A stretch of DNA of 64,000 nucleotides from an uncultured Gemmatimonadales bacterium (GTDB lineage Bacteria > Gemmatimonadota > Gemmatimonadetes > Gemmatimonadales > GWC2-71-9), in the NCBI GenBank assembly GCA_963779755.1, contig CAVZZO010000003.1, positions 1,632,001 through 1,696,000 of the forward strand, given 5' to 3'. The notes beneath the pieces were generated by a model that was not told the origin of the DNA, ran no database searches, and saw only the letters and a list, made by a program, of their open reading frames with translations. The stretch's first letter is position 1. Each line of letters begins with the position of its first letter. Below are positions 25,231 through 35,251 of the stretch, piece by piece. The position numbers and the translations under genes were made by a program.

Positions 25231-25686
25231 TCAATCATCTTCCCTCACCCCCAGCTTCTTCAGCTCCTTCAGGACTCTCCGCTGCGCTCCCTTGTCGGTA
25301 ACCGCCAGGAACAGCGTGTCGTCTCCCGCGATCGTCCCCACCACGTCGGGCCAGGCCAGCCGGTCGAGCGCCACGCCGGCGCCATTGGCCTCGCCCGGCG
25401 GCGTGTGCAGGACGACCAGGGCATCGCCGGCCGGCTCGGCGCCAAGCACACTGTCCTGCAGCCGCCGCAGATCGGGGTTCTCGTCGGGCACCGTGGCGAT
25501 GGGCCGCCGGTAGGCGCCATCCACCTTCACCAGGCGCAGCGCGGTGATGTCCCGGCTCACCGAGGACTGGGTGACGTCCCAGCCCTCCGCCGAGAGTGCC
25601 GCCGCCAGCTCCTCCTGAGTGTGGATCGGGCGGCGGCTGATCAGCTCCAGAATCTTGAGCTGGCGCTTGTGCCGATCGGCCGTCAT
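25231..25686 (-). CDS. argR: Arginine repressor
   Basis: [39 protein letters not shown] and GTIAGDDT motifs; ATGA overlap with argH. Confidence 0.96.
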   Translation of the reverse strand: MTADRHKRQLKILELISRRPIHTQEELAAALSAEGWDVTQSSVSRDITALRLVKVDGAYRRPIATVPDENPDLRRLQDSVLGAEPAGDALVVLHTPPGEANGAGVALDRLAWPDVVGTIAGDDTLFLAVTDKGAQRRVLKELKKLGVREDD

Positions 25687-27068
25687 CGCCTGCCCCCCGC
25701 CAGACGCGCCATGGCCCGCACGAAGCGGCGCTGTTCCGCCCGTTCCCACCGGCGGAAGGCCCGGAGCCGCCGGGCCAGCACATCGAGCCCGAGGTTGCCC
25801 AGCCCCCCGGCGGAACGGCGGCGCCGCAGCAGATCGGCGGCCGGCAGCGGCGGCGGGACCTCGCCCGCCCGGACCGCCCGGGCCACGTCCTGGTACGCCG
25901 CGCGGAACGGCTCTCCCTCCTCCACCCGCTGCATGACGAGGTCGGTCGCCAGCACGCCGCCGGTCAGCGCTTCGCGCGCCCGCTTGCGGTTCACTGTCAG
26001 GCGGGGCACGGCGTAGCCCAGCATGGCCAGCATGTCCGCGGTACGATCCAGGCCGCGCACCAGCGGCTCCTTCAGGAACTGAAAGTCCCGGTGGTAGCCG
26101 CCGGTCAGGCGGCCCCGCAGCGCCAGGACGGCGGCGAGGTCGCCGTCCACCAGCGCGCTGCGCGCGCGGGTCAGCTCGAAGAGATCGGGATTGCGCTTCT
26201 GCGGCATGATGCTGGAACCGGTGGCGAGGTCGGCCGGCAGCTCGAGGAAGCCGTACTCCTCGGACGAGAGGAGGATGACATCCGCCGCGAGCTTGCCCAG
26301 GTCGGCGGCGAGCTGTGCGCACCAGAAGAGCGCCGCCGCCTCGAGCTTCCCCCGTCCGTTCTGTACCGCGGTGACGCTGAGCTCGAGCCGGGCGAACCCC
26401 AGCGCGCGGGCCGCGGCCTCGCGCCGGATGGGGAGCGGCACGCCGTAGCCCGCCGCGCTGCCCAGGGGCGAGCGGTCCGCCTGCTGGTAAACGGCCGGCA
26501 ACTGCTCCAGCGTATCGAGCAGGCCTTCGGCGTAACCCGCCGCCCAGGCCCCGGCCGACGAAGGCATTGCGCGCCGCAGGTGCGTGTACCCCGGCCACAG
26601 GCTCGCCCGTTCCCGGCGGGCGAAGGCCAGCAGCACCTCCGTGAGGGCGGCGGTGCGCTCATGCAGCCGGAGCAGCGCGTCCTTGAGATAGAGCCGGATG
26701 TCGCAGGCGATCTGGTCGTTCCGCGAGCGGCCGGTATGGAGTCGCTGGCCCGCCTCGCCGGCCTTCCGCGTGAGCCAGCCCTCGACCAGCGTGTGCACGT
26801 CTTCGTCTCGCCGCCCCAGCCGCAGGCGCCCGCGCTCAGCCTCGCGCAGCGCCGAGCGCAGCCCCCGCTGGAGCCTGCGGTAGTCGGTAAGACTCAGGAG
26901 CGACGACGCGTACAGTCCCTCCGCGTGGCCCAGGCTGCCCAGAATATCCCAGCGCAGGAGCCGGGCATCCCAGGGCCGGTCCGGCCCCGCGGTGTAGTCG
27001 AACACCGCCTGGTCCACGCCGGCCGGGCCTCCCCAAAGGGTCGTCACCGGCTTCTTTCGCGGGCTCAT
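25683..27068 (-). CDS. argH: Argininosuccinate lyase
   Basis: EDVH, LHTGRSRNDQ, PGYTHL, PLGSAAGYG, TGSSIMPQKRNPD and GYHRD motifs. Confidence 0.96.
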   Translation of the reverse strand: MSPRKKPVTTLWGGPAGVDQAVFDYTAGPDRPWDARLLRWDILGSLGHAEGLYASSLLSLTDYRRLQRGLRSALREAERGRLRLGRRDEDVHTLVEGWLTRKAGEAGQRLHTGRSRNDQIACDIRLYLKDALLRLHERTAALTEVLLAFARRERASLWPGYTHLRRAMPSSAGAWAAGYAEGLLDTLEQLPAVYQQADRSPLGSAAGYGVPLPIRREAAARALGFARLELSVTAVQNGRGKLEAAALFWCAQLAADLGKLAADVILLSSEEYGFLELPADLATGSSIMPQKRNPDLFELTRARSALVDGDLAAVLALRGRLTGGYHRDFQFLKEPLVRGLDRTADMLAMLGYAVPRLTVNRKRAREALTGGVLATDLVMQRVEEGEPFRAAYQDVARAVRAGEVPPPLPAADLLRRRRSAGGLGNLGLDVLARRLRAFRRWERAEQRRFVRAMARLAGGRR

Positions 27069-28120
27069 TGCAGGTACCCTCCCGCCAGGGCGGCATAGAA
27101 GGCGCGCGCGTCGGACACTTCCGCGAGCGCCACCGATTCATCCGGGGTATGGCTCAGGCGGCTGGTCCCGGGGCCGCATTTGAACGCATCGCAGTGCCGC
27201 AGGAAGACCCAGTCGGAACAGGTGGGGCTGCCGTAGACCGAGGCCCGTGGCCGGAGCGTCCGCGCCAGAGGCAGCAGCCGCGAATCCGCCGGCGTCTCGC
27301 AGGGCACCAGCCGGTCCGAGGTGATGACCACTTCGGCCTTGAGCGCGTCACGCAGCGCCTGCGCCAGCTCCGCATGAGGCCAGGCCGGCGTGCTGCGGAT
27401 ATCGAGTACCGCCTTCGCCACCGGCGGAGTGACGTTCCGGCTGACGCCGGCCTCCAGCATGGTAGGCGTAATGGTCGGGTCGCCCAGCACCGGGTGGGGA
27501 CGGCCGCGGCCCACGCCGGCGAGCCGCAGCAGATCTTCCGCCAGCGCCGTCACCGCATTGGTGAACTCCCCGTCGTCGGCGGCATAGCCGGCATGGCGCT
27601 GGGTGCCGTGGGCCACCAGGTCGGCCATCATGAGCCCCCGCTGCGCCACCGCAATCTCCAGGTTGGTGGGCTCGCCGATCACCGCCGCGTCGACGCTCCC
27701 CGCAGCCGCGACCGCCGCCGGCATGGTGGTGTGCTTCGTCTCTTCACCGAGGCCGAGCAGAACGAGCAGGCGGCCGGCCTCCGGCCCGCCCGCCTCCGCC
27801 AGGTCGCGCGCCGCGAGCAGCATGGCCGCGACGCTCGCCTTGGCATCGCCGGAGCCGCGGCCGACCAGCCGCCCGTCCCGCACTTCCGGCGTCCAGGGAT
27901 CGTGAGTCCAGCCGGCACCGGGCGGGACGACATCCAGGTGCGACACCAGCGCGAGCGTCCGTCCCGGCCGCCGGCCCGGCACCGTCACGGTGACGCCGGT
28001 CGCGTCGCGGCGGACCTCGAGGCCCCAGTCGCGCACCGTTCGTTCCACCAGCTGCGCCACCGCTTCCTCATCGCCGCTGACCGAGGGCGTGGCGACCAGC
28101 TCGGATAGCAGCGACCGCTC
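27065..28120 (-). CDS. argE: M20 family deacylase (ArgE-like; acyl-citrulline/ornithine deacylase); start codon unresolved
   Basis: SHLDVV, GRGSGDAK, EE, GEPT, SDW and SHTPDE motifs. The conserved N-terminal LLSELVATPSVSGDEE lies upstream of the first GTG (28060). Confidence 0.88.
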   Translation of the reverse strand, partial: ERSLLSELVATPSVSGDEEAVAQLVERTVRDWGLEVRRDATGVTVTVPGRRPGRTLALVSHLDVVPPGAGWTHDPWTPEVRDGRLVGRGSGDAKASVAAMLLAARDLAEAGGPEAGRLLVLLGLGEETKHTTMPAAVAAAGSVDAAVIGEPTNLEIAVAQRGLMMADLVAHGTQRHAGYAADDGEFTNAVTALAEDLLRLAGVGRGRPHPVLGDPTITPTMLEAGVSRNVTPPVAKAVLDIRSTPAWPHAELAQALRDALKAEVVITSDRLVPCETPADSRLLPLARTLRPRASVYGSPTCSDWVFLRHCDAFKCGPGTSRLSHTPDESVALAEVSDARAFYAALAGGYLQ

Positions 28121-29054
28121 AGTCGGCCAGGTCGACGTCGAGATAGGTCGCTTTCTCCTTTCGGCCGACGATCATGGTGCCGCATCCCGCCCCGGTGAAC
28201 ACCTCGAGGAGCAGCGCGTCGGGGGCGGCGCCGGAGATGATATGGGTACGCTCCACCCCGTTGGCCGTGGCCCGGAGGCAGGCCTCCACCTTGGGGCGCA
28301 TGCCGCCGGTAATGGTGCCGTCGGCCATCAGGGCCGACAGGTCGTCGGCGTCGGCAAAGGTGACCAGCGACCCCGGATCGGCGGGATTGCGCAGGATGCC
28401 CGGGGCGCCGGTGAGAAAGATCAGCTTCTGCGCCCGGAGCGCCGTCGCCAGCACTTCGGCCACGGTGTCGGCGTTCACGTTGTACACCTGGCCCGCCCGG
28501 TCGCCCGCCAGACTGGCCACCACGGGAATGAAGCGGCCATCGAGCAATGTGAACAACACGCGGGGATCCACCGATTCGATGTCGCCCACGTGGCCGTAAT
28601 CGACCGTCCGGGTGACCCCGTCATCGTCGCGCACCTGGACCGGCGGACGGCGGCGGGCGGTGATCAGGTCGGCATCCACGCCCGAGAGCCCGACCGCCTG
28701 GAGATCGTGCGCCCGCAGGGTCCGGAGCAGCTCCACGTTGAGCGTGCCCGCGTACACCATGGTGGCCACTTCGAGCCCGGTATCGTCCGTGATCCGCCGG
28801 CCCGCCGCCATCCGGGGTTCGACACCCAGCCGCCGGCTCAGCGCCGAGGCCTGGGGACCGCCGCCGTGCACCACCACCAGACGGATGCCCAGAGAATGCA
28901 GCAGCCCGATCTGTGCCGCGACGTGATCCAGTACCTCAGACCCGGCCAACACTTCGCCGCCCAGCTTGACCACAAAGATGTGATCCCGGTACGCCCGCAC
29001 ATAACGGAGCGCCCCCTTGAGCCCGGCGATACCACGGGATGAATCGATGGACAT
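28119..29054 (-). CDS. argB: Acetylglutamate (acylglutamate) kinase
   Basis: VVKLGG, VHGGGPQ, GRRITD, YNVNADT and GGMRPKV motifs. Confidence 0.95.
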   Translation of the reverse strand: MSIDSSRGIAGLKGALRYVRAYRDHIFVVKLGGEVLAGSEVLDHVAAQIGLLHSLGIRLVVVHGGGPQASALSRRLGVEPRMAAGRRITDDTGLEVATMVYAGTLNVELLRTLRAHDLQAVGLSGVDADLITARRRPPVQVRDDDGVTRTVDYGHVGDIESVDPRVLFTLLDGRFIPVVASLAGDRAGQVYNVNADTVAEVLATALRAQKLIFLTGAPGILRNPADPGSLVTFADADDLSALMADGTITGGMRPKVEACLRATANGVERTHIISGAAPDALLLEVFTGAGCGTMIVGRKEKATYLDVDLAD

Positions 29055-29141: not shown

Positions 29142-30155
29142 TTACTGCTCCAGCAGCGTCAGCAATAATGCCCGTTGCACATGCAGGCGGTTCTCCGCCT
29201 CATCCACGACCACGCTATTGGGGCCGTCCAGCACCGCGTCCTCGATTTCCACGTTGCGACGCACCGGCAGGCAGTGCATGACGATGCCCCGCCCTTCCCG
29301 GGTAGACTTGAGACGCTCCTGGGTTATCCGCCAGTCGCGGTTGGCATTGCGAAGCTGCGCCTCCTCCTCCGGGCTGCCGAAATACTTGAGCGAGCCCCAG
29401 GACTTCACGTAGACGGCATCCGCGCCGACCAGGGCGTCGTAGGGATCGTTGTTGATGTGCACGAACCGGCCGCCGGTCTGCTGCGTCAGCTTCCGGATGA
29501 GCCCGGTATCTTCCGCATCCAGCTCGTAACCTTCCGGCCGGGCGATGACGATTTCCATGCCCAGGCGGGCCGCCGCCAGCGCGGCGCTCACCGGCACGGC
29601 GGTGGGCAGCGGCTTGGGGTGCCAGGCCCAGGTGAGTACGAAACGCTTGCCCCGCGGGTCGCCCAGCTTCTCCCGCAGCGTGAGCGCGTCGGCCAGCTCC
29701 TGACAGGGATGCCGGCGCGCGCTCTCCAGGTTGATGACCGGCTTCTCGCAGTGCTGGGCGAACCCGCGCACCACCCGGTCCTCGCGCACAATGCCCCAGT
29801 TGGTGCCGCGTGGGAAGCTGCGGATGCCTACCACGTCGGCGTACCGGCCCAGTACCCGGGCCGCTTCGATCACGTGCTCGACCTTGTCCTTGTCCATGAC
29901 CACGCCGGGCTCGGTCTCCAGCGGCCAGCTGCCCTTCCCCGGCTCCAGCACCACGGCATGGCCGCCGTGCAGGAACATCGCGGTTTCGAAGCTGGCGCGG
30001 GTTCGCAGGCTCGGGTCCATGAGCACCATGGCCATGACCTTCTTCTCCAGCCCTCCCGTCACCTCACCCCGCTTGATCCGCTCGGCCAGATCGAGCAGGG
30101 CCAGGATCTCCTCCTGGCTCCACTCCTCCACCGCCAGAAAGTCGCGCTTGCTCAC
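29142..30155 (-). CDS. argF': N-acyl-ornithine carbamoyltransferase (AOTCase/SOTCase family)
   Basis: GTG 30155 overlaps the argD stop. PSLRTRASF, HPCQ, TWAWHPKPLP.AV, KSWG and HCLPVRRN motifs distinguish it from OTCase. Confidence 0.93.
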   Translation of the reverse strand: MSKRDFLAVEEWSQEEILALLDLAERIKRGEVTGGLEKKVMAMVLMDPSLRTRASFETAMFLHGGHAVVLEPGKGSWPLETEPGVVMDKDKVEHVIEAARVLGRYADVVGIRSFPRGTNWGIVREDRVVRGFAQHCEKPVINLESARRHPCQELADALTLREKLGDPRGKRFVLTWAWHPKPLPTAVPVSAALAAARLGMEIVIARPEGYELDAEDTGLIRKLTQQTGGRFVHINNDPYDALVGADAVYVKSWGSLKYFGSPEEEAQLRNANRDWRITQERLKSTREGRGIVMHCLPVRRNVEIEDAVLDGPNSVVVDEAENRLHVQRALLLTLLEQ

Positions 30156-31285
30156 GCCAGTACCTCCTTGAGGGCGGTCAGCAGCCGATCCGCCTCCGCA
30201 TGCGAGAAGGACAACGGCGGCAGGAGCCGGAGTACGTCCGGATCCGTCGCCGTCCCGGTCAGTATGCGGTGAGCGAACAGCGCGCGCTGCACCGGTGCCG
30301 CCGGCCGGCCCAGCCGGAGCCCCAGCAGAAGTCCCCGGCCGTCCACGCCCGGCAGTCCCAGCGCCAGCGCCCCCTCCCGCAGCGCTTCCCCCACCGCGAT
30401 CGCGTTGGCAATCAAACCCTCGCGGTCGATGACTTCCAGGGTGGCGAGCGCCGCGGCACAGGGGACCGGGCCGCCGCCGAAGGTGCTGCCGAGGTCGCCC
30501 GGCTTGAGCATGGCGGTGATCTGCGGGGCGGCAAGCACGGCCGCCATCGGCAGCCCGGAGGCGAGGCCCTTGGCCATGGTGAGAAGATCGGGCGTCACCC
30601 CGAACGACTCCGCGGCGGTGAAGGCGCCGCAGCGGCCGGTGCCGCACTGGATCTCATCGAAAATCAGTACCGCGCCGGCGCGGTCGCAGGCCTCGCGCGC
30701 GGCGAGCAGGAACTCCGGCGTGCAGGCCCGGGCACCGGCCATCCCCTGCACCGGCTCCAGCAGCACCGCCGCGACGGTTTCGTCCACGGCCTGCATCACG
30801 GCGGCGGGATCGTTGAAGGTGGCGCGACGCGAGATCGGCATGCCCGCCCGGCGCGCCCCGGCCTCGTACTTAGCACCGTCGCAGCAGGCCAGCGTGGCCA
30901 CGGTCCGCCCATGCCACCCGCCGGTGAGGGTGACGATCGTCTGCCGGCCGGTGTAGCGGCGCGCCAGATGCAGCGCGTTTTCGTTGGCCTCCGCCCCGGA
31001 ATTGCAGAAGAACACCTGGTCCAGCGGCACCGGCGCGCGATCGGCCAGCTGGGTCGCCAGCGTCCGCCGCAGCGGCAGGGGTACCGCGGTCGAGTAGAAG
31101 AGCAGCCGAGCCGCCTGGTCGGCAATGGCCTGCACCACGGCCGGATGGCTGTGCCCGGTCACCGCCACCGCGTGCCCGCCATAGGCGTCGAGCCATTCAT
31201 TACCGCTCTCATCCACCAGCCAGGAGCCGTGCCCGGAGACGGGACGCACCGGCATCTGGGAGTAGACGGGCATGAGATGGGACAT
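30152..31285 (-). CDS. argD: Acyl-ornithine aminotransferase (class III)
   Basis: FFCNSGAEANE, WHGRT, LEPVQG, FDEIQCG, AKGLASG and GSTFGG motifs. Confidence 0.93.
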   Translation of the reverse strand: MSHLMPVYSQMPVRPVSGHGSWLVDESGNEWLDAYGGHAVAVTGHSHPAVVQAIADQAARLLFYSTAVPLPLRRTLATQLADRAPVPLDQVFFCNSGAEANENALHLARRYTGRQTIVTLTGGWHGRTVATLACCDGAKYEAGARRAGMPISRRATFNDPAAVMQAVDETVAAVLLEPVQGMAGARACTPEFLLAAREACDRAGAVLIFDEIQCGTGRCGAFTAAESFGVTPDLLTMAKGLASGLPMAAVLAAPQITAMLKPGDLGSTFGGGPVPCAAALATLEVIDREGLIANAIAVGEALREGALALGLPGVDGRGLLLGLRLGRPAAPVQRALFAHRILTGTATDPDVLRLLPPLSFSHAEADRLLTALKEVLA

Positions 31286-31335
31286 GGAGGCCGAGAGGGT
31301 CAAGGGGGTCGAAGGTCGAAGGTCAAAGGAAGCCA

Positions 31336-32355
31336 TTAGACCGGAAAGGGGCTTCCGCCCCGTAACCCGGCCGTCTCGTCAATTCCCAGCGCCAGGTTCA
31401 TCGCCTGCACCCCCTGGCCGCCCGCACCCTTGACCAGGTTATCGATGGCCACGTTGACCTCGATCTCCCGCCCGTCTTTGCTCTCCGTTACGTGGATCAG
31501 TGCGTAATTGGTACCTGCCGCGTGGGTCAACTGGACCGGCTCATCCATCACGCGGACAAAGGGCCGGGCGGCGTAGGTCGTGCGGTAGCGTTCCGCCATG
31601 CCGGGTGGGACGTGGCGTGCGTGAAGCGTGAGGTAGATCCCCCGCACGAACGGTCCCGAATGGGTGAGCAGCCGCGCTTCCGCGTCCGGCCGGCCGGTCC
31701 ATTCGCGCCAGCGCTGCAGGATCTCGGCGTCATGCCGGTGGTGGAGCGGCGAATAGGCGAAGACGTTGTTGGCCCGAAGCGGATGGTGGGTGGTCGGCCT
31801 GGGCCGGTTGCCGCTGCCGCTGGACCCGGTGATGGCGAAGAGTGAGGGCTCGACCGGGGTCTCCAGGCCCGAAAGGGGGTACAGTGCCAGTTGCGCCGCC
31901 GTGGCGAAGCAGCCGGGCACCGCCAGCGCCGTCTTCCCCAGCAAGGCGGGCCCCAGCACATCGGCCAGCGCGTAGGTGAAGCGGCCGGCGTAGGCCGGCG
32001 CGCCATGGGGGCCGTAGTACCGCTCGTAGAGCCGGAGATCGGACACGCGAAAATCGGCGGCGAGATCGACGATGATACCGGGGCCCGCCTCGTAGACCGA
32101 CTCGATCACCCGCGACGACTCCCCATGCTCCAGCGCCAGAAAGACGACATCGCAGCCGGCGGCGGCCATGCCGGCCTCGTCACCGGCAAAGCGCGCGTCG
32201 GTCATGCCCGCCAGGCCCGGATGCACCGCCGCCAGCGGCTGGCCCGCCTGGCTCCGGCTGGTGGCCGTCAACTCGGTGACGTCCGGATGCTGGAGCAGCA
32301 GGCGGAGCAGCTCCCCGCCGACGAACCCGGCTCCGCCGATTACCGCGACCCTCAC
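31336..32355 (-). CDS. argC: N-acetyl-gamma-glutamyl-phosphate reductase
   Basis: GGAGFVGGEL, DLAADFR, PGCFAT, TGSSGSG and DNLVKGAGGQ motifs. Confidence 0.95.
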   Translation of the reverse strand: MRVAVIGGAGFVGGELLRLLLQHPDVTELTATSRSQAGQPLAAVHPGLAGMTDARFAGDEAGMAAAGCDVVFLALEHGESSRVIESVYEAGPGIIVDLAADFRVSDLRLYERYYGPHGAPAYAGRFTYALADVLGPALLGKTALAVPGCFATAAQLALYPLSGLETPVEPSLFAITGSSGSGNRPRPTTHHPLRANNVFAYSPLHHRHDAEILQRWREWTGRPDAEARLLTHSGPFVRGIYLTLHARHVPPGMAERYRTTYAARPFVRVMDEPVQLTHAAGTNYALIHVTESKDGREIEVNVAIDNLVKGAGGQGVQAMNLALGIDETAGLRGGSPFPV

Positions 32356-33431
32356 GATGTTGCTCCCGCGGGGCGGCCGGCGCGGTCGAGCGCCGCGGTC
32401 ACGATTTCCACCAGGCCCGAGGGATCGCGCAGCGCGTTCCGGGATGGCAGCCCCAGCCGGTTCTCGATGTAGCTGCGGCCCACCTCGTTGTCGGTGGCCG
32501 GCCCGGTCACCACGGTGATCGACAGGCCGTAGTCCCGCCGCATCAGCTCCGCCGCACCCCAGCAGGCCACCGGGTCGGGCGCCGCCATCACCCAGGCCGC
32601 GCCGAGGCCGGCCAGCCCCTCATCGGAAAGAATGTCCTGCACCCCGTATTCCCCGAGAATGCCGTCGCCCAGCTCCGCTACCACGACGTCGGGCCGGGAG
32701 GCGGCCAGCCGGTTGAAGAGCCCCCGGGCTACGGGCACCGTCATCCCGGCATGGGTGCTCGCGGCCCCCGCGTCGTTGAAAGTGAGCGCGGCAATGGCCC
32801 CGGCATCCTGCATGGCCAGCGCGTCGCGCATGAGCGAGACGCCGGTCAGCTTCGCCGCCGCCACCCGGCGTCCTTCCCGGGCCAGGCCCCGGACAATCTC
32901 GGTGGCCGCCGCCGTCTTGCCGGCGTTCATGCAGGTGCCCGCCACGTAGACCACGGGGACACCGGTCTCCAGCCGGTCCGCGGCCGGCACCGCGTGCGCC
33001 CGGATATTGGCCGGCGTGCCGATGCGGTCGCCCAGGTCGGGGAAAGTGAGCACCGCGCCCAGGACCTCCGCGCGGAAGGGAGGCCCGATATCGGGATTGG
33101 CCGAGGTGCACCGGCCCAGAATACCGCCCAGGTTGAGCACCTCGATCTCATTGCCGGGCGAAAGCTCGTCCGGTACCACGCCGGCGTAGCCCCGCAACGC
33201 CCGCCGGCTCCCCAGGGTGCCCGCCAGCACATCGCCGGCGCGCAGCGATACCATGCGCCCACTGGGATCTTCCAGCGTATTGTAGGTCCCCTTCTCGGTC
33301 AGCACCCGGACCGCAAGGATATAACCTTCCCGGCTGACGATCTCCGGGCCGATGATCACTTCGGATGCGAGGTGCGCATTCCGGGTCGACGAGGCAATCC
33401 GGTCCAGCCGGATACGACGGGTATGAACCAT
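32352..33431 (-). CDS. DUF1611/DgcN-like P-loop protein inside the arg operon (candidate glutamate N-acyltransferase)
   Basis: YVAGTCMNAGKT, AAKLTG..RD..M.DAGA and ELGDGILG motifs. 9-bp gap from argG and 4-bp overlap with argC. Confidence 0.7.
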   Translation of the reverse strand: MVHTRRIRLDRIASSTRNAHLASEVIIGPEIVSREGYILAVRVLTEKGTYNTLEDPSGRMVSLRAGDVLAGTLGSRRALRGYAGVVPDELSPGNEIEVLNLGGILGRCTSANPDIGPPFRAEVLGAVLTFPDLGDRIGTPANIRAHAVPAADRLETGVPVVYVAGTCMNAGKTAAATEIVRGLAREGRRVAAAKLTGVSLMRDALAMQDAGAIAALTFNDAGAASTHAGMTVPVARGLFNRLAASRPDVVVAELGDGILGEYGVQDILSDEGLAGLGAAWVMAAPDPVACWGAAELMRRDYGLSITVVTGPATDNEVGRSYIENRLGLPSRNALRDPSGLVEIVTAALDRAGRPAGATS

Positions 33432-33440
33432 GAGAACCGA

Positions 33441-34634
33441 TCAGCGACCGGAGCCGGCCCGCTGCGCGAGAAGGGAAGGAATGGCGGAAACCCGGGCGAA
33501 AGCGCGGGCTTCGTCCCCGCTCCAGAGCCGGTTATCCTCGCCGTAGGTGGCGACCGACGGGTCGAGCAGCGAGAAGGGACTGCGCACCCCGACTACCTGG
33601 AATCGGCCCGGCGCCAGACGCACCCGGGTCTCGCCCGTCACCCGCTGCTGACTGCTGGCGAGCAGGGCCTCGATATCGCGCAGCGCCGGATCGAAATACT
33701 GTCCTTCGTGCAGCCGGTCGCCATAGAAGCGGGCCAGCTGGTCCTTCCAGTAGATCTGCCAGCGGGTGAGCACCAGCTTCTCCAGCTCGCGATGCGCCCC
33801 GATCAGCACCAGCGCCGCGCCCGCTTCGAACCCCACCCGGCCCTTGATGCCCAGCGCCGTCTCGCCCAGGTGTATTCCCCGGCCAATACCATACGCCTGG
33901 GTCAGGCCGGCCAAGGCATCGACCAGGGCGGGACCGGGCTGTTCCGCGCCGTCGAGCGCGGCCGGCAGCCCGTTCGCCCAGGCCAGCACGATCTCCTGCG
34001 GTGCCGGCGCATCGGCCGGCGGGTCCAGCAACTCCGCCGGAGGCCCGGCCCAGGAGTCGTGGGTCCAGCCGCCGCCCCAGGTGGTGCCCCAGCCGCCCCG
34101 ATTCACCGAATAGGCGCCCGCCTGCGCCGGGACCGGCAGGCCGCGCTCCTGGAGATAGGCGATCGCATCCGGTCGCGACAAACGCTGGTCGCGAATGGGG
34201 GTGAGAATCTCGAGCTCAGGCGCCAGGACGCGGAAGGCCACATCGAAGCGGACCTGGTCGTTCCCCGCCCCCGTCGATCCATGGGCGACCGCCGCGGCGC
34301 CGATGGCCCGCGCCGTCTCCACTACCGAGATGGCCTGCTGCGTGCGCTCGGCGGCCACGCTCAGGGGATAGACCTCCCCCCGCAGCACATTGCCCTGAAT
34401 AAGGAAGCGGACGAAACGGTCGTGCACCTGCGCCGTGGCGTCAACCTCGTGGTGCCGGGCGGCGCCCACGGCCAACGCCTGGCGGCGGATCGCCTCCCGT
34501 TCCCCGGGCGAGGCTCCGCCGGTATACACGAACACGGTGTGCACCTCCCAGCCGGCCTCCCGCAGCCGGGGCACACAGTAGGAGGTATCCAGGCCACCGG
34601 AGAAGGCGAGGGCGGCGATTCGCTGAGATTGCAT
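33441..34634 (-). CDS. argG: Argininosuccinate synthase
   Basis: Start ATG 34634. ALAFSGGLDTS, YPLSVAAER, HGSTGAGNDQVRFD and GIKGRVGFEA motifs. Confidence 0.96.
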   Translation of the reverse strand: MQSQRIAALAFSGGLDTSYCVPRLREAGWEVHTVFVYTGGASPGEREAIRRQALAVGAARHHEVDATAQVHDRFVRFLIQGNVLRGEVYPLSVAAERTQQAISVVETARAIGAAAVAHGSTGAGNDQVRFDVAFRVLAPELEILTPIRDQRLSRPDAIAYLQERGLPVPAQAGAYSVNRGGWGTTWGGGWTHDSWAGPPAELLDPPADAPAPQEIVLAWANGLPAALDGAEQPGPALVDALAGLTQAYGIGRGIHLGETALGIKGRVGFEAGAALVLIGAHRELEKLVLTRWQIYWKDQLARFYGDRLHEGQYFDPALRDIEALLASSQQRVTGETRVRLAPGRFQVVGVRSPFSLLDPSVATYGEDNRLWSGDEARAFARVSAIPSLLAQRAGSGR

Positions 34635-34636
34635 AG

Positions 34637-34650
34637 TGCATAAGTATGCA
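34637..34650. promoter_or_regulatory. ARG box (ArgR operator) immediately upstream of argG
   Basis: Palindrome TGCATAAGTATGCA lies 2 nt from the argG ATG and overlaps a putative -10 (CATACT). A -35-like TTGCGG lies 18 nt upstream of that on the minus strand. Confidence 0.8.
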
Positions 34651-34707
34651 ATAGGCCTGGGCCGCTCCGCAAGGCCGGAAACCGAAAGGAGCAAAGGACT
34701 GGGGGGG

Positions 34708-35150
34708 ACGGCAAGGCGGCAGGACGGCAAGACGGCAAGAGCGAGCTCGAAGCCGATGCCTCCCGCAGCGCGCGTCAGGAGCGCCCACCGGTGGATGGGG
34801 ATCTGATCGCCGCGAAGCGATCCGTCGGCGCGCGGAGGGAGGCTCGGCGAGGGCAAGCGCCAGGGACTGAGCGGGAAGCTGCTACGGCGCGAGGGCCGGG
34901 GTTGCCGGCGCAGGCACCACCGAACCGGGGAGTGGCGGGGTGGTATCGGTGCTGCCGGAGCCGGCACCCCGGACCGAGCACCGCGGGCCAGATGCCCCAG
35001 GACTGAGACACTAACGGCTCCGGCCGCCCGACGCCGATGCCTCCCGCAGCGCGCGTATGTGCCTTGGAGACACGCGATGCCCTCTCCCCGGTGGCGCACT
35101 TCAGCGCGCGGAGGGGGGCTCGGCGAGGACGAGCGGGAAGAGGACTGAGG
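34708..35150. repeat. Composite modular repeat region
   Basis: GGCARGAC octamers plus modules shared with 19385-19585, 36320-36439 and 42965-43075 (direct and reverse-complement matches read by eye). Confidence 0.85.
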
Positions 35151-35251
35151 CGAAGCAACTGCGAGCCCAGCGAACACCCGGCAGAAGGATGGTTCCCAAG
35201 GTTCTTGCAGAACCGCCTTCCCCTGTCACTCCGGGACAGTAGACTTCTCGC

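Follow-up and report, generated by a model that had tools for sequence, protein, structure and literature searches.

A candidate N-succinyl-L-glutamate synthase lacking a GNAT domain in the arginine operon of an uncultured Gemmatimonadales bacterium

The first step of arginine biosynthesis can be carried out by classical ArgA, which consists of AAK and GNAT domains, or by ArgJ, an ornithine acetyltransferase that recycles the acetyl group. Another enzyme, ArgA2 (BT3761 and Cabys_1732, from Bacteroidota and Caldithrix), is a GNAT-type N-succinylglutamate synthase (GapMind 2020; Kublanov 2017; Ashniev 2022), whose role is backed by fitness data from B. thetaiotaomicron. Price et al. (PLoS Genet 2026) predicted the same role for a Steroidobacter protein, ACG33_RS14135 (A0A127FCT3), listed in their Table 1 with experimental evidence "no", and counted its family in 109 genera.

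Here, we describe a gene, designated X, in a 64,000-nucleotide stretch of Gemmatimonadales DNA (the whole stretch analyzed, hereafter the window). X would take the same place in the pathway as ArgA and ArgJ, and its distribution and theirs are mutually exclusive; it has no homology to either and, unlike ArgJ, cannot recycle the acetyl group. The reaction proposed for X is that of ArgA2, and the operon is of the same kind, with a SOTCase-type ArgF', but X carries no GNAT domain and its role is a predicted one.

X also resembles ACG33_RS14135; the hosts differ (Gemmatimonadales and Steroidobacter). Both are hypothetical proteins of about 357 to 359 aa whose genes sit among argB, C, D, F', E, G, H and R, both show remote structural similarity to DgcN (7XRJ), and in both cases position 92 of the neighboring ArgF' is A, P, S or V. 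These three features, as well as the absence of ArgA from genomes carrying the ACG33_RS14135 family, were reproduced here for X. About 60 codons of the codon-optimized pALF12 insert (supplement of Price et al.) were translated by eye, yielding GTCMEAGKT and KATGVSLRRD..LAMED; in these two stretches, X agrees with the insert at roughly 33 of 57 residues aligned by eye, among them GTCM.AGKTAAA and K.TGVSL.RD.LAM.D. At 1074 nt, the insert is close in length to X (1080 nt), and one member of our alignments, P0128 (A1/A2 alignment), matches it almost letter for letter in the same two stretches. Judging from these motifs, which were compared by eye only, X probably belongs to the same family as ACG33_RS14135. 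That this family comprises succinylglutamate synthases was predicted independently by Price et al. (2026); the idea is already in print and in GapMind, and is not new. While Price et al. reported anti-correlation with the Pseudomonas-type ArgA and assumed an acyltransferase, ArgJ was also considered here, as were the intact Walker A motif and the N-terminal domain, which are not discussed there.

Organization and context of the operon

The reading frame at 32352..33431 (-) was confirmed, with an ATG start and a 359 aa product. Pfam and NCBIfam profiles place it in an operon with the order argG-X-argC-argD-argF'-argB-argE'-argH-argR, which has a palindrome in front of it:

34637..34650 (-), ARG-box-like palindrome TGCATACTTATGCA, read directly, 2 nt ahead of the argG start
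33441..34634 (-), argG, argininosuccinate synthase, 397 aa (PF00764 and PF20979; TIGR00032, 250.7 bits)
32352..33431 (-), gene X, candidate N-succinyl-L-glutamate synthase (alternative ArgA), 359 aa, from conservation and context
31336..32355 (-), argC (TIGR01850, 288.8 bits, cut-off 233.6)
30152..31336 (-), argD, N-acylornithine aminotransferase (PF00202, 297.8 bits; TIGR00707, 317.1 bits)
29142..30152 (-), argF', N-acylornithine carbamoyltransferase of the AOTCase/SOTCase type (NF003384, 416.4 bits, cut-off 288)
29880..29882 (-), Val codon within argF' aligned with E92 of Xanthomonas AOTCase, the residue that determines acetyl/succinyl specificity, from alignment and translation
28119..29054 (-), argB, N-acylglutamate kinase (TIGR00761, 227.7 bits, cut-off 151.3)
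27065..28060 (-), argE', M20 deacylase of the ArgE/DapE family (PF01546 and PF07687; TIGR01910, 126.1 bits, below cut-off)
25683..27068 (-), argH, argininosuccinate lyase (TIGR00838, 295.5 bits, cut-off 279.5)
25231..25686 (-), argR, arginine repressor (PF02863, 69.6 bits at 25255-25458), its ATG overlapping the argH stop codon

X starts 9 nt after the argG stop codon and its TGA stop overlaps the GTG start of argC, in line with the tight coupling between argG and argC claimed in the preliminary description. The same description placed the operon under an ARG box, and a predicted site of this kind, the ARG-box-like palindrome, does lie just before the argG ATG (34632-34634). Palindromes built alike (TGCAT, 4-8 bases, ATGCA) occupy a similar position in 29 of the 72 related loci that could be scored, and one of the two ArgR_C matches in the genome is located at the end of the X operon. 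The profile matches of the neighbors also bore out the claim that every arginine step but the first is represented in the operon, and no GNAT, ArgJ or LysW/ArgX genes were found within it with the Pfam and NCBIfam profiles. Based on its position in the operon, argE' is a candidate for an N-succinylcitrulline desuccinylase. The pathway has eight steps and the operon eight biosynthetic genes; once all others are paired, X and step 1 are left over, which was counted in favor of X as the first enzyme.

Related loci were identified with a 12-sequence alignment of X, and 80 of them, from species-representative genomes, were fetched. At least one other arg gene was present in all 80 and the full set of seven others in 49. 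While argG was found directly upstream of X in 74 loci, argC immediately follows X in 78; the remaining two are a locus at which the contig ends and one lacking argC within 10 kb. By label, 24 of the 80 loci come from other phyla (Acidobacteriota, Myxococcota, Planctomycetota, Alphaproteobacteria and Elusimicrobia), and in three Myxococcota loci the gene order is rearranged with the X-argC pair kept.

Seven longer X relatives, in which X is joined to ArgC, ArgG or several arg genes together, were considered as fusion evidence and set aside; all seven are singletons from a single contig, each fused to whichever arg gene adjoins, and they look like read-through artefacts. Separately, a single sequence (P0222) combines an X-like domain with an amino-acid-kinase domain of the ArgB/ArgA type, and a search among metagenome contigs turned up no relatives of it.

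Members of the wider family also occur outside arg clusters, for example beside a PGA_cap-domain protein (locus L110). Five Acidobacteriota copies have lower scores, including one from a genome with ArgJ, and one match in a Gemmatimonadota genome (G047, E 4.8e-72) was dropped from the orthologue count as a paralogue outside arg clusters. These copies outside the clusters and at lower scores could be taken to mean that X catalyzes another arginine or glutamate reaction and travels with the operon, for instance as a kinase or ligase acting on a different intermediate. However, the lower-scoring copies form a distinct group, with E-values of 1e-58 to 1e-72 as opposed to 1e-107 or better for the arg-linked clade, and every other pathway step already has a dedicated gene in the operon, so that we give this explanation hardly any weight.

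Distribution of X, ArgJ and ArgA

The preliminary description proposed to look for anti-correlation with argA and argJ across genomes, and such a pattern was found. Among 121 Gemmatimonadota genomes, 30 have an X orthologue and 48 have ArgJ; among 151 Acidobacteriota genomes, the respective numbers are 38 and 33. The two never occur together in either phylum (0/30 and 0/38, i.e., ArgJ is present in none of the 68 genomes with an X orthologue), and ArgJ is likewise missing from all five X-bearing genomes of four other lineages. Within the family to which the host belongs, each of the 44 ArgB-positive genomes carries exactly one of X (26 genomes) or ArgJ (18 genomes). ArgA, scored as TIGR01890 above cut-off, was found in none of the Gemmatimonadota genomes and in one Acidobacteriota genome, which does not have X. 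This anti-correlation partly reflects two whole operon types; ArgB and ArgC from the inspected Gemmatimonadota clusters of the ArgJ type, and of the type with neither gene, are only 30-40% identical to those of the window, so that the pattern does not by itself set X apart from the other genes of the cassette.

The genome from which the window was taken is 96.97% complete in 4 contigs. An argA or argJ gene elsewhere in this genome had been named in advance as a finding that would speak against the proposed role, and profile searches of the genome found neither ArgJ nor a classical ArgA above cut-off, the sole strong TIGR01890 match being to the kinase portion of ArgB. No NAGS model was matched at its cut-off by any of the genome's 20 GNAT open reading frames. 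One open reading frame of 178 aa scored 123.7 bits on ArsN2 and matched the GNAT part of ArgA weakly. In a sister family, 13 ArgB-positive genomes have no X orthologue, ArgJ or ArgA, which indicates that unrecognized first-step enzymes exist and that a cryptic GNAT in the genome of the window is possible.

An unrecognized acyltransferase encoded elsewhere in the genome is part of an alternative in which X is an accessory nucleotide-dependent factor and not a pathway enzyme, for example a regulator, or a SIMIBI-type metallochaperone or maturation factor acting on the M20 deacylase, and the N-acylglutamate is made by the other enzyme. We regard this as unlikely, given that X pairs with argC and not with the M20 gene, that it is kept in clusters without an ArgE match (e.g., L089, L092 and L098), and that no GNAT of the genome attains a NAGS cut-off. 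Steroidobacter, too, has an X homologue and lacks the expected ArgE (Price et al. 2026). A chaperone would, moreover, leave unexplained why, in every cluster, step 1 alone lacks a gene.

Predicted fold and the nature of the acyl group

X is a conserved gene; of 8000 candidate proteins scored, 5069 match it at E<=1e-3, the best 120 of these matches are 73-90% identical to it, and its relatives form 1442 clusters at 50% identity. The preliminary description called the product DUF1611-like. As a family assignment by sequence this did not hold, since X falls short of every model cut-off: PF07755 (DUF1611_C) matches only residues 155-195, with a score of 15.2 bits (cut-off 25; E 0.015), and neither the N-terminal domain PF17396, which canonical DUF1611 members carry, nor NF041892 (DgcN) matches X. 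Among 57 diverse homologues, PF07755 matches 14 at E<=0.01 (best E-value 2.8e-4), TIGR00347 (bioD) matches 5 weakly, and NF041892 matches none. No match of X to PF00583 or a NAGS model was obtained even at E<=10, and thus a GNAT domain is absent. Sequence searches of solved structures with X returned generic P-loop proteins (FtsY, BioD and MobB) and no DUF1611 entry, and a 113-residue piece around the P-loop returned nothing useful. Automatic "DUF1611" cluster names in the ESM Atlas, without a common Pfam family, were treated as a lead only, and a literature search on DUF1611 found nothing relevant.

What did stand was a remote kinship of the C-terminal P-loop domain, seen in an AlphaFold2 model of X (pLDDT 96.6, pTM 0.93) with the following parts:

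32982..33431 (-), N-terminal all-beta domain of X, residues 1 to about 150, with conserved S14, E54, R76 and P87
32376..32969 (-), C-terminal SIMIBI-type P-loop domain of X, residues about 155-352, with invariant K194 and Walker-B-like E253
32913..32939 (-), Walker A motif GTCMNAGKT of X, G165-T173, from translation

In the predicted structure, the C-terminal domain has the fold of the DUF1611/DgcN P-loop domain, with dethiobiotin synthetase and CTP synthase scoring about as similar in the fold comparison. The Walker A motif, a Walker B motif (VVVAELGDG, E253) and the fold also agree with a SIMIBI protein of the dethiobiotin synthetase type, and nucleotide binding is predicted. Structure comparison of the all-beta N-terminal domain gave no match; we consider that it probably supplies the glutamate site. 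Across the 57 homologues, G171, K172, K194 (22 residues past the Walker A Lys) and E253 are invariant and T173 is at least 90% conserved. K194 may be equivalent to the second catalytic Lys found in dethiobiotin synthetase. The Walker A motif ends in GKT in X, whereas the three solved DUF1611 proteins (PDB 7XRJ, which is DgcN, 2OBN and 2G0T) have GKM, GKM and GKR, and at the place of the invariant Lys they show TGQTG. A separate, canonical DUF1611 gene, scoring 289.6 bits on NF041892, is present elsewhere in the genome of the window, in which no BioD was found.

Among P-loop families, DUF1611/DgcN is to our knowledge the only one for which N-acylation of glutamate has been reported, and the remote relationship of the C-terminal domain to it was counted in favor of glutamate N-acylation by X. 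DgcN itself reportedly transfers acetyl, with which its database names agree (JGI "D-glutamate N-acetyltransferase" and the NCBIfam name). This characterized relative, along with the top NCBIfam and PDB matches of ArgF', which are N-acetylornithine carbamoyltransferases (the best PDB matches being Xanthomonas AOTCase entries at 320-323 bits), would be expected if X were an N-acetylglutamate synthase in a pathway with acetylated intermediates, as in Xanthomonas. Such a pathway appears very unlikely, however, as ArgF' has Val instead of Glu at the site equivalent to E92 (DKDKVEH aligned to DGDTEEH of Xanthomonas AOTCase), as does its top PDB match, 3l06. The SOTCase-type residue mentioned in the preliminary description is thus present. 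In neighboring ArgF' proteins from 61 loci, this residue is V in 53, A in 5, and S, I and T in one each (V, A or S in 59 of 61), and never E. According to Shi et al. 2007, as quoted in Price et al. 2026, replacement of E92 in AOTCase by A, P, S or V switches the enzyme to succinylornithine. The Val therefore points to succinyl intermediates, an assignment from sequence that rests on this single residue rule from the literature.

Proposed pathway and implications

Taken together, X most likely provides the enzyme for the missing first step, and its product is probably N-succinylglutamate. We infer, with good though not full confidence, a linear N-succinylated arginine pathway in which X would succinylate L-glutamate on its amino group. 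N-succinylglutamate would then be converted to N-succinylornithine by ArgB, ArgC and ArgD, ArgF' would carbamoylate the N-succinylornithine, the M20 deacylase would strip succinate to give citrulline, and ArgG and ArgH would complete the final steps. X would thus be a non-orthologous replacement of ArgA and ArgJ, with a catalytic core formed by a P-loop domain of the dethiobiotin synthetase, CTP synthase and DUF1611 group under an all-beta N-terminal cap. The suggestion made at the outset, a non-homologous ArgA replacement of non-GNAT fold, possibly using succinyl, is the reading of the comparative data that is best supported for the predicted activity.

The acyl donor may be succinyl-CoA, comparable to the acetyl-CoA used by DgcN, or free succinate together with ATP. 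Dethiobiotin synthetase and the synthetase domain of CTP synthase are ATP-dependent P-loop enzymes that form C-N bonds; X differs from both in having an additional N-terminal domain and no sequence membership, and by analogy an ATP-dependent mechanism may be hypothesized for it. X could in that case be a succinate-L-glutamate ligase and not an acyl-CoA transferase, with free succinate being converted on the dethiobiotin-synthetase-like P-loop to succinyl phosphate, from which the succinyl group would pass to the amino group of glutamate. This possibility, which we advance tentatively and consider the less probable version of the mechanism, is suggested by the Mg-binding Thr of Walker A, the invariant Lys 22 residues downstream and the invariant Walker-B Glu, all of which X keeps, by the lack of such a Lys in the three solved DUF1611 proteins with their GKM or GKR motifs, and by ATP-dependent ligases scoring as high as DgcN in the fold comparison. 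If true, the operon would encode a self-contained succinate cycle, with the desuccinylase at its other end, and X would represent a new enzyme class for arginine step 1 with an N-terminal substrate domain of undescribed fold.

If X makes N-succinylglutamate, the "missing ArgA" gap in arginine biosynthesis would be closed, and X would be the first enzyme for arginine step 1 that is neither a GNAT protein nor ArgJ. N-acylation of glutamate by P-loop proteins would then extend from D-glutamate catabolism, represented by DgcN, to a core anabolic pathway. Taking into consideration that a quarter of the Gemmatimonadota and Acidobacteriota genomes sampled here carry X, which also occurs in loci labeled Myxococcota, Planctomycetota and others, its role would bear on the genome-based prediction of auxotrophy in abundant and mostly uncultured soil bacteria.

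The arginine operon and its counterparts in other genomes

Gene X (359 aa), the candidate N-succinylglutamate synthase, forms one densely packed minus-strand operon with the arg genes in a window with a G+C content of approximately 69% (G000:C3:1632001-1696000, from an assembly of 4.23 Mb in 4 contigs, 96.97% complete).

Genes of the arginine operon, in order of transcription
33441-34634, minus strand, argG
32352-33431, minus strand, X
31336-32355, minus strand, argC
30152-31336, minus strand, argD
29142-30152, minus strand, argF' (N-acylornithine carbamoyltransferase)
28119-29054, minus strand, argB
27065-28060, minus strand, M20 ArgE/DapE-type deacylase
25683-27068, minus strand, argH
25231-25686, minus strand, argR, last gene of the operon, its ATG overlapping the argH stop codon

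The gene layout, the coupling of argG, X and argC and the palindrome before argG show that the operon had been described correctly in the preliminary description. The argG stop codon precedes the start of X by 9 nt, the TGA of X overlaps the GTG of argC, and the palindrome TGCATACTTATGCA is located 2 nt upstream of the argG ATG; in 29 of 72 related loci, a similarly built palindrome (TGCAT, 4-8 bases, ATGCA) occupies a roughly equivalent site. The argR gene was missed by a longest-ORF listing because a longer, meaningless ORF occupies another frame (25235-25783), and a second ArgR_C match was found elsewhere on the contig (G000:C3:1170696-1170884). Between the putative argG operator and the divergent rmuC, approximately 600 bp (34651-35250) carry no credible ORF and no Rfam family at E≤0.1; this stretch contains two direct-repeat pairs (35 nt, 89%; 31 nt, 94%), each approximately 280 bp apart and representing a duplicated block, as well as a 16-nt tandem pair.

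With one genome scanned per species, at least 585 stretches encoding an X relative were identified; the best 80 were searched for arg genes by tblastn with the Arg proteins of the window (E≤1e-10, a search that may miss divergent arg genes). Besides X, each of the 80 loci carried one or more arg genes, with the full set of seven in 49; 24 of the 80 had labels of other phyla. Immediately downstream of X, argC was found in 78 of the 80 loci, the exceptions being L096, which ends 53 nt past X, and L090, which has no argC within 10 kb. The argG gene was immediately upstream in 74 loci; the exceptions were two loci whose sequence begins inside X, one locus whose argG is on the opposite strand, and three from Myxococcota in which the genes run X-argC-argD-argB-argE-argG-argH.

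Sequence and predicted structure of X

X is strongly conserved. Among 8000 candidates scored, 5069 proteins were related to X at E≤1e-3, and an exhaustive search of cluster representatives found 1442 clusters at the same threshold. The best 120 relatives share 73-90% identity with X and, where named, are called "hypothetical protein"; the closest among the matches listed have Gemmatimonadales labels. In an alignment of 57 diverse full-length family members, P87, G171, K172, K194 and E253 are invariant, and S14, E54, R76, T173, D203, D220 and D286 are at least 90% conserved.

The preliminary description had called X DUF1611-like, which holds only weakly, for the P-loop stretch, and not for the protein as scored by family models. 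At E≤1e-3, neither Pfam nor NCBIfam contained a family matching X; at E≤10, residues 155-195 matched the P-loop of DUF1611_C with 15.2 bits, below the cut-off of 25, and CbiA and MobB were matched as well. Weak matches among the 57 aligned members were to CbiA (24), MobB (22) and DUF1611 (14), and none of the 57 matched the model of DgcN, the D-glutamate N-acetyltransferase of the DUF1611 family.

The AlphaFold2 model of X, built from the same alignment (pLDDT 96.6, pTM 0.93), has two domains. The N-terminal domain is all-beta in the model, and no structural match to it was found. The C-terminal domain (approximately residues 155-352) is predicted to be a SIMIBI-type P-loop domain, for which Foldseek ranked SRP GTPases and dethiobiotin synthetase on top (E ~1e-5) and the DUF1611 structure 2obn 18th. 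In fold comparison, the highest value was obtained for the DUF1611 protein TM0796 (2g0t; 17.6, rmsd 2.8 Å over 181 residues), followed by CTP synthase (16.3), 2obn (16.0), dethiobiotin synthetase (15.9) and DgcN (7xrj; 15.1, rmsd 3.0 Å over 180 residues). Since these values interleave, the DUF1611 group would be only nominally the best match of the modelled domain and is not separated from ATP-dependent ligases or NTPase chaperones.

The genome also encodes a canonical DUF1611 protein outside the window (G000:C3:721906-722514; L115:1435-2541), so X is not its sole P-loop protein of that group. This protein scored 252.5 bits with PF07755 and 289.6 bits with the DgcN model, below the equivalog cut-off of 480, and its gene adjoins genes for a geranylgeranyl-reductase-like flavoprotein and pspA. 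BLASTP found only a 43-residue P-loop region in common between X and this protein, and profile-profile comparison of the two families aligned 173 columns of the C-terminal domain with 37.9% probability.

First-step enzymes across genomes

The absence of argA and argJ, which the preliminary description had reported for the operon, extends to the whole genome, where ArgJ had no match and ArgA (TIGR01890) gave nothing above cut-off. The sole strong hit of TIGR01890 was ArgB of the operon, in its kinase domain. GNAT-type ArgA2 enzymes have been described in Bacteroidota and Caldithrix (GapMind 2020; Kublanov et al. 2017; Ashniev et al. 2022); none of the 20 GNAT ORFs in this genome reached the cut-off of any NAGS model, the best scores being 43.8 bits for PRK07922 (cut-off 180), 32.7 for the CG3035 family (cut-off 280) and 26.5 for TIGR01890 (cut-off 202.85). 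One of these ORFs (178 aa; ArsN2-like, 123.7 bits) is a conceivable cryptic candidate for the first step.

Anti-correlation of X with argA and argJ, proposed as a check, was borne out for argJ in two phyla. In one fixed sample of 121 Gemmatimonadota genomes, the profile of the 57-member alignment identified X in 31, and ArgJ was found in 48, ArgB in 94 and ArgA in none; no genome carried both X and ArgJ. The hit in G047 was rejected as an X orthologue, as it is a paralogue located outside arg clusters. Within the family to which the window belongs (54 genomes including G000), each of the 44 ArgB-positive genomes carries either X (26) or ArgJ (18), never both; 8 genomes with neither X nor ArgJ also lack ArgB, and ArgB was not detected in 2 fragmented X-positive assemblies. 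Among 151 Acidobacteriota genomes, 38 X orthologues (E≤2e-107), 5 lower-scoring paralogues and 1 fragment were found, along with ArgJ in 33 genomes and ArgA in 1; no X orthologue occurred with ArgJ or ArgA, and the single family hit in an ArgJ-bearing genome (G163) is a paralogue. None of 5 X-bearing genomes of other lineages carried ArgJ. Three unpublished genomes (G057, G149 and G174) are part of these co-occurrence counts; leaving them out gives 0/65.

In the sister family, neither an X orthologue nor ArgJ nor classical ArgA was found in 13 ArgB-positive Gemmatimonadota genomes (G036, G040, G047, G050, G052, G072, G074, G084, G092, G098, G104, G111 and G114), and loci L106-L109 (from G036, G040, G074 and G114) contain argC-argB-argD clusters. 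Because such clusters in the examined genomes without X are only 30-40% identical to the window genes, the pattern contrasts two entire operon types rather than X and ArgJ alone.

The paralogues outside arg clusters (L110:9874-10947 in G047; also in G127, G163, G164, G218 and G267) form a clade with 34% identity to X and profile E values of 1e-58 to 1e-72. The G047 paralogue is flanked by a 407-aa protein and an 800-aa PGA_cap-domain protein, followed by an ABC exporter; this neighbor, of poly-gamma-glutamate capsule type, hints at another glutamate-linked role for the clade. The metagenomic representative P0222 (626 aa) is 5'-truncated and joins residues 1-309, which are X-like, to an amino-acid-kinase domain scoring 127.1 bits with argB (cut-off 151.3) and 95.5 bits with the kinase-like portion of classical ArgA. 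The architecture of this one sequence would mirror that of ArgA, with X replacing the GNAT domain; no relatives were found in metagenome contigs.

The acyl group and the published prediction

ArgF' of the window scored 320-323 bits against the Xanthomonas N-acetylornithine carbamoyltransferase and carries Val at the site of the wild-type E92, as does the best-scoring entry, 3l06. Replacement of E92 by A, P, S or V turns this enzyme to N-succinylornithine (Shi et al. 2007, cited in Price et al. 2026). Across 61 readable related loci, the equivalent residue is V in 53, A in 5 and S, I and T in 1 each, and never E. Judged by this residue, succinylated intermediates are more likely than acetylated ones.

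The acyl donor could be succinyl-CoA. X could alternatively be an ATP-dependent succinate-glutamate ligase using free succinate, which we consider a real, though less likely, alternative. In its favor, X has a complete Walker A motif (GTCMNAGKT, its Thr at least 90% conserved) and the invariant K194, whereas the solved DUF1611 proteins have GKM (2obn and DgcN 7xrj) or GKR (2g0t) in place of GKT and TGQTG at the position of K194. By these motifs, X appears to retain hallmarks of nucleotide-triphosphate enzymes that were lost in the DgcN group.

Synthesis of N-succinylglutamate by a non-GNAT enzyme, as first proposed for X, is the best-supported reading given the arg context, the lack of overlap with ArgJ and ArgA and the Val in ArgF', and X is probably the first-step enzyme. 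The same role was predicted by Price et al. for Steroidobacter ACG33_RS14135 (A0A127FCT3), in a preprint (Appendix 2) and then in PLoS Genetics (12 Nov 2026; "GapMind 2026"). The grounds given in the passages on this protein are that a hypothetical protein is nearly always within arg operons and never together with the Pseudomonas-type ArgA (109 vs 970 genera), that Foldseek weakly matches it to DgcN (7XRJ) and that position 92 is A, P, S or V in 90% of 70 neighboring ArgF'. Experimental evidence is entered as "no" in their Table 1; the supplement includes a plasmid with the codon-optimized gene (pALF12, supplementary file 4, PMC13759103), for which the accessible parts of that article report no complementation or assay result. 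The plasmid label reads A0A127FTC3, with two letters swapped relative to the text. Approximately 60 codons of the insert, translated by eye, encode the family P-loop followed by a K.TGVSL.RD.LAM.D block; approximately 33 of 57 residues are identical to X, and the stretch matches the aligned family member P0128 near-exactly. X thus very probably belongs to the family of Price et al.

The role of X is therefore an unproven prediction that is already in print. New here are an all-beta N-terminal domain to which no structure matched, the complete Walker A motif and K194 that distinguish X from DgcN, the strict X-or-ArgJ pattern at the family level in two phyla, its nature as a whole-cassette contrast, and a third, unexplained solution to the first step of arginine synthesis in the sister family.
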